Shown piece after piece: positions 28,745-31,093 of a DNA stretch of 64,000 nt. Numbering within the stretch: position 1 is the stretch's first letter; each line of letters starts with the position of its first letter. The translations under genes were made by a program, and so were the position numbers. The stretch comes from Longimicrobiales bacterium (GTDB lineage Bacteria > Gemmatimonadota > Gemmatimonadetes > Longimicrobiales > Gaopeijiaceae), in contig CBDAON010000004.1 of NCBI GenBank assembly GCA_965198065.1, positions 736,001 through 800,000 of the forward strand, given 5' to 3'. The notes beneath the pieces are model-generated. The model ran no database searches. It was not told where the DNA came from and saw only the letters and a list, made by a program, of their open reading frames with translations.

Positions 28745-30316
28745 TCAGTGAGGCGCGTCCGTTGCCCGTCCCGCCCCGCTCTCGCCATCCGGCAACGGAA
28801 CGCTCCGTGAATCCCCAAGGATCCACGCCAGCCCCGCAGCCACACCCATCACGACCGCGGCCGCGATAAACACCTCCCGGAACGTCTCGACCTGGGCCTC
28901 CTGTACGAGCTGGAGGAACTCGGGGGACCTGAAGTCGAGCGTGCTGGCCCTCGCGTAAAAGCGGCCGAACCCATGCGACGTGAGGATGGCGGCCCCGAGG
29001 AGCATCCCGGTCATGCGAGCGAGGGTGAGCCAGGCAGCGGCAGTCGCTCGCCGGTCCTCACCCACCTGATCCAGGACCGCCGCGCTTAGGGGCGCGAGCA
29101 CGAGGCCGAAGCCGAGCCCGCCCGCGATCTGGGGAGCCGTTCGCATGAGCTGGGTCAGGTCGCGGTCCCAGGCCTGGAGGCCGAGGAACCCCACAGCCAC
29201 CAGGAGACAACCGACGACCGCCGGTCCGCGGAGCCCGATGCGTCCGCCGAGCCAGCCACCGAGGAGCGCCCCGATCGGCACGGCGGCCGTGAGGCGCATG
29301 AGCGTGAGCCCCCCGGAAAGCGCTCCCTCGGCCAGGACGAGGTTCACGAACAGGGGCACACCCATGAGGGCCGTTATGAGGCCCACGCCCACGAGGAGCA
29401 TAGTCAGGTTCGACGCGAGGACCCGACGCCCGACGAGCTCCGCGAGGCGCACCATCGGCTCCCGCCCCTCCCGCTCGACCCGACGCTCGTGGAGCACGAA
29501 TACGACGGCGAAGACCGCGGCCACGAGGAGGATCCCGCCGGTTGCGGCGAGCGGCCTTGGATTCACGGGGTCCGTCACGAGCCCGTAGGTGAGGACAGCG
29601 AGAGTAGCACCCAGGAGACCGGCCCCGCGCCAGTCGATCCTCCCGCTGCTTCGGGAGCCCCCCGCGAGCCACCAGGCCCCCAACAGGGTCGGGGCGACGA
29701 CGCCCAGGTTGATCCAGAACACCCACCGCCAGCTGAGCCAATCCGTGATGATCCCGCCCCACGCGGGACCGATCAGGGCCCCGGCCTCGGTCGCGGCCGC
29801 GATAGCGCCGAGCCCCATGAGCCGGCGCTCCGGCGGGAGTTGCTCGACCACGATCGCCATGGCGACCGGGACTACGCCTCCCCCGCCCAGCGCCTGGAGG
29901 GCGCGCGCCGCGACGATCCAGTCGAAGGTCGGCATGAGGGCCACGGACGCGCTTCCGAGCATGAAGACGACGAGCGTCGAGGCCAGAACGCGGGCCAGAC
30001 CGTAGACGTCCGCAATCCGTCCTACGATCGGGAGCGCGACGAGGTAGCCCAGGAGGTAGCCGTTCACGACCCAGGACGAGCGATAGAACTCGCTGATCGG
30101 AAGCCCCACATCCTGAATGAGGGCGGGGAGCACGACCACGATGGACGTCTGATCGCTCGCCGTGATGAAGACGCCCACGCCCACGATGAAGAGGAGGAGC
30201 CGCCCCCTGGCGGCGTCGACCCCCCCCCTCGAGAGCCATCCCGCCTGGAGCCACGGGGGGACCCGGGGCCGCGGACCGGCCGCCGCCCCCAGCCCGTCCC
30301 CTTCCCGGAGAGACAC
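28745..30316 (-). CDS. 14-TM MFS transporter, Rv1410c/P55-like
   Basis: ASDQT, WVVNGYLLGY, GRIADVYG (motif A), ATEAGALIGP, SWRWVFWINL, ARMTGMLLG. Confidence 0.88.
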   Translation of the reverse strand: MSLREGDGLGAAAGPRPRVPPWLQAGWLSRGGVDAARGRLLLFIVGVGVFITASDQTSIVVVLPALIQDVGLPISEFYRSSWVVNGYLLGYLVALPIVGRIADVYGLARVLASTLVVFMLGSASVALMPTFDWIVAARALQALGGGGVVPVAMAIVVEQLPPERRLMGLGAIAAATEAGALIGPAWGGIITDWLSWRWVFWINLGVVAPTLLGAWWLAGGSRSSGRIDWRGAGLLGATLAVLTYGLVTDPVNPRPLAATGGILLVAAVFAVVFVLHERRVEREGREPMVRLAELVGRRVLASNLTMLLVGVGLITALMGVPLFVNLVLAEGALSGGLTLMRLTAAVPIGALLGGWLGGRIGLRGPAVVGCLLVAVGFLGLQAWDRDLTQLMRTAPQIAGGLGFGLVLAPLSAAVLDQVGEDRRATAAAWLTLARMTGMLLGAAILTSHGFGRFYARASTLDFRSPEFLQLVQEAQVETFREVFIAAAVVMGVAAGLAWILGDSRSVPLPDGESGAGRATDAPH

Positions 30317-30355
30317 GAATTAGCTCGGGGCGCGGGGGGACACGAATCAGCTCGG
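30312..30355. repeat. 17-bp direct repeat (1 mismatch) duplicating the lipoprotein-stop/MFS-start junction
   Basis: gacacgaattagctcgg (30312-30328) and gacacgaatcagctcgg (30339-30355). Confidence 0.85.
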
Positions 30356-31093
30356 AGGATCGATAGTGAAGCTCGATCCGAATTCGGAGAACGTGAGGCG
30401 TCGCACCAGGGTCTCGAGTTCCCCCTCCTGGACTCCACCCACGATCTCGAGCTGGTAAAGCACGGGGTCGGCCTCTCCGATCCAGGCGCGGACGTGGACC
30501 GCTCGGCCCGGGGCCGCCTGGGGCACCAGCCCGGCCAGCGCCTCGGACGCAACGCTCGCCTCGATCCGATGGGCCGACGTCCCATCGATCACCTCCGAGC
30601 CCACGAGCGTGGCCTCTTGGATCCCCCTCATGAGCGCAGGAACCCCGGTGGCGGGATCGAAGAACTGGGAGACTCTTATGGCCTCGGGGACCCACTGCCC
30701 CGTAAGCGGATTGGTCATCCACGACCCCTCCGGAAGCACGATGACGCCCACCTCCAGGGCCACCGGCCCCACCATGGCCTGGAGCTGGGCTTCCATGCGG
30801 TCACGGCCCACCAAACGCCCCTCCGCCCGCACCATCTGGAGACCCCGTGTGATCGTGGTCGCCCCGTTCTCGTGCTCGAGCAGGAAGGCGAAGCTCCCGA
30901 CGCTCTCCATCCGACCCGCGGCCTGCCCCAGGAGCACCACCGGATCGGGCGGCCCGGGGGGTCCCTCGGCCCCTCCGCAGGACGCGATCGCGAGCGTCGT
31001 GAGGACGAGGACGCCCGGCCGGATCCGACCCGTCGGTCGTGCCTCGGCCATTCTCGGTTGCGGTTCCGCCATGCTGGGTCGCGGCTCGGCCAT
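30347..31093 (-). CDS. LppX/LprAFG (LprG-like) lipoprotein
   Basis: Lipobox LAIASC; FDPATGVPALM, LVGSEVIDG..AHRIEASV, VRAWIGE, LTFSEFG..FTIDPP. Start may be any of three repeated ATGs. Confidence 0.8.
   Translation of the reverse strand: MAEPRPSMAEPQPRMAEARPTGRIRPGVLVLTTLAIASCGGAEGPPGPPDPVVLLGQAAGRMESVGSFAFLLEHENGATTITRGLQMVRAEGRLVGRDRMEAQLQAMVGPVALEVGVIVLPEGSWMTNPLTGQWVPEAIRVSQFFDPATGVPALMRGIQEATLVGSEVIDGTSAHRIEASVASEALAGLVPQAAPGRAVHVRAWIGEADPVLYQLEIVGGVQEGELETLVRRLTFSEFGSSFTIDPPS

Follow-up and report, generated by a model that had tools for sequence, protein, structure and literature searches.

An LprG-Rv1410-family lipoprotein and transporter pair in a predicted LPS diderm of the Gemmatimonadota

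The locus and the two encoded proteins

We analysed a stretch of 64,000 nucleotides (hereafter, the window) from the genome of a Longimicrobiales bacterium of the phylum Gemmatimonadota (GenBank assembly GCA_965198065.1, contig CBDAON010000004.1, positions 736,001 to 800,000), in which a lipoprotein gene and a gene for a transporter of the major facilitator superfamily (MFS) stand side by side between ribF and rpsO. On the minus strand the order is truB, ribF, a 248-amino-acid open reading frame (ORF) for the lipoprotein, a 523-amino-acid ORF for the transporter, an ORF with a TonB_C domain, rpsO and pnp (Table 1). By every test that we ran, of sequence, fold, phylogeny and linkage, the pair belongs to the LprG-Rv1410 family, which serves the export of triacylglyceride (TAG) in mycobacteria. 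An earlier interpretation made from the letters alone (the sequence-only reading) had recognised such a pair, and its coordinates and spacings are correct: the ribF stop codon (31101-31103) ends 7 bp ahead of the first ATG of the lipoprotein gene, and 30 bp separate the two genes.

With 45.8 bits the lipoprotein passes the cut-off (24) of the profile PF07161 (LppX_LprAFG); its best PDB match by sequence is LppX (E 1.6e-4). Its AlphaFold2 (AF2) model, built on a 79-row alignment with a mean predicted local distance difference test (pLDDT) of 91.6, is a beta half-barrel with a helical lid, preceded by a tether of about 12 residues after Cys39. When this model was searched with Foldseek, LprG came out best (E 1.7e-12, TM-score 0.82 by target), LprF and LppX followed, and LolA-type proteins reached E of about 1e-6 or weaker. 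The assignment to the LppX/LprAFG family, first made without searches, is thus upheld both by the profile and by the closest solved fold, that of LprG; the LprG segments quoted for it (NPDTGL, ATVWIQE, TLSKWG) all occur in the sequence of the solved LprG. At the position of V91, which gates the LprG pocket, the alignment has a small residue, Ala106.

For the MFS protein, the best sequence match in the PDB is 8PNL, the solved Rv1410 homologue MHAS2168 (E 1e-46; EfpA follows with 1.5e-16). The AF2 model (pLDDT 91.0) has 14 membrane helices, including the linker helices A/B of the DHA2 fold, and its closest fold is again 8PNL/MHAS2168 (Foldseek TM-score 0.81/0.88), so that the proposed 14-helix, Rv1410c-like transporter agrees with its nearest solved relative in sequence and in fold. 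The TM1 Asp and TM5 Glu that the sequence-only reading pointed out are D55 and E177, aligned to D35 and E157 of MHAS2168. Two of the Rv1410c segments that it quotes, AQELG and WGLYRF, occur in MHAS2168, whereas TM11 there reads VARMIGMLIG and not VARMTGMLIG. None of the 25 NCBIfam models listed reached its cut-off; the nearest was the EmrB-type efflux model TIGR00711, with 151.5 bits against 230.2.

The residues on which transport depends are kept. A preprint on MHAS2168 (10.1101/2023.01.25.525346; this and the other papers are cited here for the sections drawn on) names as functional D35/R118, the E157-R426 ion lock, G150 and A420 of the cleft, L299 of the cavity and the TM11-TM12 extension. 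In the alignment, the first two pairs correspond to D55/R138 and E177-R434 of the window MFS, while the mutationally tested G150, L299, A420 and L431 correspond to G170, L317, A428 and L439; judged in this way, both the TM5 Glu/TM11 Arg lock and the TM1 Asp/TM4 Arg pair are present. D55, R138, E177, R341 and R434 are the only buried charges in the cores of the membrane helices, and there are no extra acids. The beta-hairpin lying between TM9 and TM10 is missing; the same preprint describes it as dispensable in Rv1410.

The Glu-Arg lock was counted in the 115 rows that remained once duplicates (11 loci), rows that were short or unflagged (7) and 29 of the 46 pumps without a partner had been removed, with 6 rows that end before TM11 left out of the counts. 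It occurs in 2/2 Gemmatimonadota, 40/51 Dehalococcoidia, 6/22 other Chloroflexota and 15/17 Actinomycetota rows, in none of the 17 unpaired DHA2 pumps, and also in two further Gemmatimonadota MFS proteins. Natural swaps at the lock positions are found among paired MFS proteins (D-Q in 8 rows, N-W in 3, T-R in 18), which suggests subfamilies with another coupling or another cargo.

The start of the lipoprotein is ambiguous, with in-frame Met1, Met8 and Met15 each opening one of three 21-nt repeats. Met15 is the likely start, because a normal 24-residue signal peptide before Cys39 results; the statement that the gene starts 7 bp after ribF therefore holds for Met1, and the distance may be 49 bp with Met15. 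The repeats lengthen the N-terminus and are not present in the three related carrier genomes. Another small local duplication, two 23-nt copies 27 nt apart and 87% alike (30306-30355), extends over the stop codon of the lipoprotein gene and the start of the MFS gene. A pattern scan of 27500-32200 found no promoter-like site (shuffles gave 0.2) and one terminator-like site, just beyond the MFS gene (shuffles gave 1.5); between ribF and the MFS stop it found no terminator-like site. Read-through from ribF into the pair is plausible on this pattern. The ORF with the TonB C-terminal domain and a likely signal peptide (27889 to about 28650, minus strand) lies between the MFS gene and rpsO only in the window's genome, and its G+C content at third codon positions (GC3) is 0.66, against 0.83-0.89 for most neighbours; because of this low GC3 and this confinement, we take it for a later, separate insertion at the same spot.

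Table 1. Positions of the pair, its functional sites and its native flanks in the window
Feature	Position	Strand	Remarks
LppX/LprAFG-family (LprG-fold) lipoprotein	30347..31093	-	248 aa from Met1; likely start Met15 (31051)
Rv1410/MHAS2168-type DHA2 MFS transporter	28745..30316	-	523 aa, GTG start, 14 membrane helices (6+2+6)
Lipobox I-A-S-C, predicted lipidated Cys39, +2 = Gly	30977..30988	-	from sequence; Cys aligned across most relatives
Three imperfect 21-nt repeats, each with ATG at its start	31031..31093	-	copies 1 and 3 are 86% alike
Asp55 in TM1 (= D35 of MHAS2168, D22 of Rv1410)	30152..30154	-	alignment to 8PNL; partners Arg138, Gln141 and Asn203 kept
Glu177 in TM5, ion-lock acid (= E157 of MHAS2168, E147 of Rv1410)	29786..29788	-	alignment
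Arg434 in TM11, ion-lock base (= R426 of MHAS2168, R417 of Rv1410)	29015..29017	-	alignment
TM11-TM12 outward helix extension, about residues 449-482, hydrophobic tip F462/F468/L469	28871..28972	-	AF2 helices 420-458 and 467-498; span counts
ribF, native upstream flank of the insertion, outside the module	31101..32060	-	PF06574 + PF01687
rpsO, native downstream flank	27297..27569	-	PF00312; directly after ribF in pair-lacking relatives

Distribution, origin and retention of the pair

Linkage of the two genes recurs outside the window, as the sequence-only reading had led us to expect. A lipoprotein gene lies upstream of the MFS gene in 34 of the 80 genome loci found by an MFS-first search, the other 46 being distant pumps of 33% identity or less. 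Starting from the lipoprotein, the MFS gene follows directly in 29/29 top Dehalococcoidia loci, in 25/30 Chloroflexota loci and in 13 of 14 strong actinobacterial loci (the remaining one stands at a contig edge), and in none of 14 weak actinobacterial ones; among metagenome loci 51/52 are linked, and the single miss has 61 bp of sequence left. When neighbouring genes were clustered over 40 loci, none was seen to accompany the pair throughout the set. In 11-13 of these 40 loci a gene for an extracytoplasmic function (ECF) sigma factor with an RskA-type anti-sigma gene lies upstream of the module.

In the trees, all lipoprotein-paired MFS rows form one clade apart from the unpaired pumps (100/100), and the window protein does not fall among generic EmrB/QacA transporters. 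This bears directly on the simplest alternative, that a generic drug pump of the EmrB/QacA type stands beside an unrelated lipoprotein by chance. Many NCBIfam efflux models do match the MFS weakly, but every one of these matches is under its cut-off, and together with the agreement of the two gene trees and the linkage in metagenomes the separation of the clades largely refutes this alternative, which we regard as hardly credible.

PF07161 was detected in 72/201 Dehalococcoidia, 78/201 Chloroflexota and 33/251 Actinomycetota genomes, the actinobacterial matches being weak in many cases. The sequence-only reading had placed the pair in a non-mycolate envelope. The host is indeed non-mycolate, but such a setting is not rare, since the pair is common in monoderm Chloroflexota; the unusual point is its presence in a diderm with lipopolysaccharide (LPS). 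A protein-database alignment search, for which part of the candidates were scored, gave Gemmatimonadota and Actinomycetota hosts and is no evidence of absence from other phyla. A full-text search found no paper that pairs LppX_LprAFG, LprG or LppX with Chloroflexi, or Rv1410 with Gemmatimonad-, within a coverage that leaves out most subscription papers, so that this distribution may be published; LppX, LprG and LolA are not mentioned in the first 300,000 characters of PMC7203096.

The closest MFS proteins outside the carrier clade are those of Dehalococcoidia, with 60-66% identity. In a 40-row MFS tree the Gemmatimonadota proteins are nested within two clades, one of 9 rows (100/99) and one of 14 (100/100), whose other members are all Dehalococcoidia. 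Approximately unbiased (AU) tests, run under LG+G4 with no mixture model and on groups picked after viewing an 85-row tree, rejected both a union of the Gemmatimonadota MFS with six core actinobacterial rows (p 0.00026) and a monophyly of Dehalococcoidia that excludes the Gemmatimonadota rows (p 2e-9). The lipoprotein tree places the window protein with the same seven Dehalococcoidia (98), and because the two trees agree, both genes appear to have moved together. Most likely, the pair was gained once from a donor within Dehalococcoidia (Chloroflexota); of the two sources named in the sequence-only reading, Actinomycetota or Chloroflexota, the trees retain the second and reject a sister position for the first. 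Several actinobacterial pairs fall with Chloroflexota rows instead of joining the mycobacterial clade, a pattern indicative of repeated transfers between these two phyla.

Within the host's own phylum few carriers were found. PF07161 was found in 2/61 relatives and in 1/351 genomes of the phylum, the latter being the window's own, and a profile search across the host family gave full-length matches in 4/314 genomes, which belong to 2/81 genera (six weak partial matches, E 2e-5 to 8e-4, are left out of this count); at E 1e-60, 250 other genomes of the order yielded no match to the MFS. The order truB-ribF-lipoprotein-MFS-rpsO is the same in all four carrier genomes, and of 28 relatives without the pair, 22 have rpsO within 700 bp after ribF. 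The nearest titled record is a Gemmatimonadota genome with the same gene order (RibF 85%, Pnp 89%), and the nearest lipoproteins carry the NCBI name Gemmatimonadota. A RibF+TruB tree of 31 genomes unites the four carriers in one clade (99/98), and the clade of their MFS proteins branches identically (100/100). The dN/dS values are 0.12-0.20 for the MFS gene and 0.25-0.34 for the lipoprotein gene, with dS equal to that of neighbouring genes, and the GC3 of the pair (0.85-0.87) is native-like. Both genes are under purifying selection, and the picture fits one old insertion that would have been retained since.

Contamination or mis-binning was ruled out, as the pair lies inside a 2.87-Mb contig, occupies the same site in four genomes and resembles its neighbours in GC3. 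A flavin link through ribF was likewise discarded: ribF-rpsO is the native arrangement in most relatives, and the pair is flanked by other genes in the donor loci. Five pair-lacking relatives also have an interrupted or extended ribF-rpsO junction, and because of this the site may take up insertions readily.

Because genes for LpxC, LolA and MlaD-domain proteins are present in the host, its envelope is predicted to be of the LPS-type diderm kind. The Lnt N-terminal family was not found in three of five Gemmatimonadota genomes, the window's included, which may be a search miss; LolA is present in two of these three, again including the window's genome. The donors are of another type: Dehalococcoidia are described as monoderm (PMC10284905), and neither LpxC nor LolA was found in the two donor-type Dehalococcoidia/Chloroflexota genomes tested.

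A lipid route and its possible cargo

We consider it probable (at about 0.6) that the pair uses the proton gradient to lift a hydrophobic membrane lipid, probably other than TAG, and that this lipid is handed over to the tethered lipoprotein. The scheme is modelled on the work on MHAS2168 and LprG (10.1101/2023.01.25.525346, PMC4709180). The MFS would draw on the proton gradient for extraction of the lipid from the inner membrane; the lipid would enter sideways from the membrane through side clefts, where Gly170 and Ala428 are kept, and closing of the Glu177-Arg434 lock would push it outward, after which it may slide along the shortened TM11-TM12 extension and into the pocket of the lipoprotein in the periplasm. 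Finally, the lipoprotein at the surface of the inner membrane would pass the lipid on toward the outer membrane. The placement at the inner membrane is suggested by the shortness of the tether in the model. The +2 residue is Gly in the lipoproteins of all four hosts, and under the E. coli +2 rule Gly would not hold a lipoprotein in the inner membrane, although this rule may not fit the phylum. With LpxC and LolA the host departs from what a mycolic-acid outer membrane would require; this is a property of the host and not of the module, and it therefore lowers the expectation of the same job, not that of the same family. The job of the pair likely differs from the mycobacterial one in both cargo and destination.

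Several observations weigh against this scheme. The lock is not universal in the paired family, being D-Q in 8 and N-W in 3 of the 51 Dehalococcoidia rows and T-R in 16 of the 22 other Chloroflexota rows. From R434 through F483 the window MFS measures 50 residues, while seven rows of mycobacterial type measure 58-66 and MHAS2168 measures 66; a 10-residue deletion in the extension leaves Rv1410 partly active (PMC6519032), and the equivalent cut inactivates MHAS2168 (10.1101/2023.01.25.525346). The aromatic TM12 sites above the cavity are V471/Q475 in the window MFS. The gene ino1 does not track the pair (39/40 with it, 38/39 without), nor do PF03279 acyltransferases (30/40 with, 27/39 without). 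The donors have no outer membrane (PMC10284905), and export there would be without an obvious destination.

As for the extension, it is present and helical in the model, TM12 starting about two turns later when the proteins are aligned on the conserved Phe; the 50-residue span is common to the window MFS and the Dehalococcoidia donor clade and is therefore inherited rather than an adaptation to the new host. A prediction of the complex between MFS residues 36-505 and lipoprotein residues 45-248 scored 0.30 against a mark of 0.32, with no controls folded.

The monoderm nature of the donors also invites the opposite direction of transport, in which the lipoprotein would capture lipids from the surroundings (fatty acids, sterols, hydrocarbons), to be lowered into the membrane by the MFS. 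A binding protein with a permease is the usual layout for uptake, and monoderm heterotrophs have no outer membrane to supply (PMC10284905). Moreover, mycobacteria that have lost the operon grow more slowly on cholesterol (PMC4709180), and simulations show reverse unloading from LprG (10.1101/2023.01.25.525346). The cholesterol defect is attributed in PMC4709180 itself to a build-up of TAG, however, and no lipid-catabolic gene occurred among 37 recurrent neighbour ORFs scanned from the 40 loci. The class to which the MFS belongs, DHA2, is one of exporters, and altogether we think lipid scavenging unlikely.

We attach an equally small weight to a third possibility, that the pair cleans the membrane by removing foreign or damaged hydrophobic compounds from the core of the bilayer, with the lipoprotein as a sink and not a delivery vehicle. 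It would suit the EmrB-type nearest model, for all its score below the cut-off, the patchy distribution among Dehalococcoidia and in the host family, and the arrival of the pair without a biosynthetic partner gene in the flanks examined. On the other hand, the cavity helices have no extra acidic residues of the drug-binding kind, the single copy and near-constant linkage suit a housekeeping role, and the work in PMC6519032 showed that drug resistance is not conferred by efflux through Rv1410.

The scheme of lipid lifting leaves the cargo to be considered, and here TAG itself comes first. The TAG synthase family of wax ester synthases/diacylglycerol acyltransferases (WS/DGAT, PF03007) was not found in any of the four hosts, the assemblies of which are 60-99% complete, although two mycobacterial-type genomes used as positive controls gave 14 and 10 matches. 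Among Chloroflexota it was found in 7 of the 51 genomes with the pair and in none of the 25 without it; of 10 Actinomycetota that carry the pair, 7 gave a match. TAG is thus probably not the cargo here, and TAG made in the usual way cannot, on this gene content, be the general cargo, because WS/DGAT was not found in 4/4 hosts and in 44/51 pair-bearing Chloroflexota, even though a small excess among carriers is noted. Export of TAG as in mycobacteria would call for an acyltransferase outside WS/DGAT or for a gene missing from the assemblies. Every key transport residue is kept, the window's assembly is 87.6% complete, and the excess of WS/DGAT among pair-bearing Chloroflexota, whose members are kin and not independent, would agree with it; with one of the four hosts 99% complete and a shorter TM11-TM12 extension, we consider TAG export very improbable.

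A two- or three-chain glycerolipid, for example an acylated phosphatidylinositol derivative or diacylglycerol, may be proposed only tentatively. LprG binds acylated phosphatidylinositol mannoside (PIM) as well as TAG (PMC4709180), and its complex with acylated PIM is PDB 3MHA. In the host, a CDP-alcohol phosphatidyltransferase gene adjoins ino1, and in one donor genome ino1 adjoins two PF03279 acyltransferase genes. Since ino1 and PF03279 are equally common without the pair, inositol lipids would be allowed as cargo and are not indicated. Apart from the pair, ino1 followed by one or two genes for PF03279 acyltransferases, which we take to be PatA-like, recurs in many Chloroflexota genomes (for instance at locus L303, 7374-10422), two of them tested for LpxC and without it, which hints that acylated inositol lipids are widespread in this phylum. 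Three other candidate clues were set aside as non-discriminating: squalene/phytoene synthase occurs in the hosts and one pair-lacking relative and was not found in the same donor genome, MlaD is present in 5/5 genomes with or without the pair, and the Lnt N-terminal domain is patchy (2/5).

A wider view can be drawn from the MFS trees, where actinobacterial rows are scattered over three or four positions among those of Chloroflexota. Because of this scatter, LprG-Rv1410 could be seen not as a device of the mycomembrane but as an old, portable lipid shuttle centred on Chloroflexota, with the mycobacterial TAG exporter as one late specialisation. In the LPS envelope of the Gemmatimonadota it might then provide a proton-driven route for a non-TAG lipid, perhaps an inositol lipid, beside Lpt, Lol and MCE, with the loaded lipoprotein possibly riding Lol. 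We offer this view as a rather doubtful one.

Comparison with known systems

The mechanism itself is already known, and the LPS diderm is a third type of envelope for a known system, so that the gain is moderate. Nevertheless, the sections of the literature drawn on treat operon, ion lock and helix extension as mycobacterial features, while selection maintains the module in envelopes of three types (mycolate diderm, monoderm and LPS diderm), mostly without the TAG synthase family, which puts its basic cargo and its destination in question. A clean single transfer of an envelope machine from a monoderm to a diderm is documented here. The family also offers natural variants for questions about Rv1410, such as how small the extension can be and where LprG delivers, in the form of a short extension, E-R, D-Q, N-W and T-R locks and a host with LolA.

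With the mycobacterial lprG-rv1410c (P27-P55), the window pair has in common the gene order and spacing, the LprG fold and the 14-helix DHA2 fold, as well as the D22/R108-type pair, the motif A Asp, the E147-R417-type lock and the cleft residues. In both, the TM11-TM12 extension has a hydrophobic tip, but that of the window MFS is 8-16 residues shorter; it also differs in having no TM9-TM10 beta-hairpin and in not keeping the aromatic TM12 sites, and its host differs in the LPS envelope (LpxC, LolA) and in that WS/DGAT was not found. Structural alignment to the solved MHAS2168 (8PNL) and LprG (3MH8, 3MHA, 4ZRA) gives about 29% and 19% identity, respectively. The uncharacterised pair of Dehalococcoidia/Chloroflexota is much closer, being the direct source clade with the same gene order, an MFS 60-66% identical and the 50-residue span; it differs in its monoderm hosts and in other flanking genes.

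LppX, LprF and LprA share the Pfam family and the fold of the window lipoprotein. The export of phthiocerol dimycocerosate (PDIM), which LppX serves, works with an MmpL pump, whereas the partner of the window lipoprotein is an MFS of the Rv1410 type. The service of LppX in PDIM export is described in PMC4709180. On the transporter side, EmrB, QacA, EfpA and NorC have the 14-helix fold (TM-score 0.69-0.80), the TM1 acid and motif A in common with the window MFS. The 17 unpaired DHA2 pumps sampled are unlike it in having no lipoprotein partner, in lacking the TM5 Glu (0/17) and in forming a separate clade.

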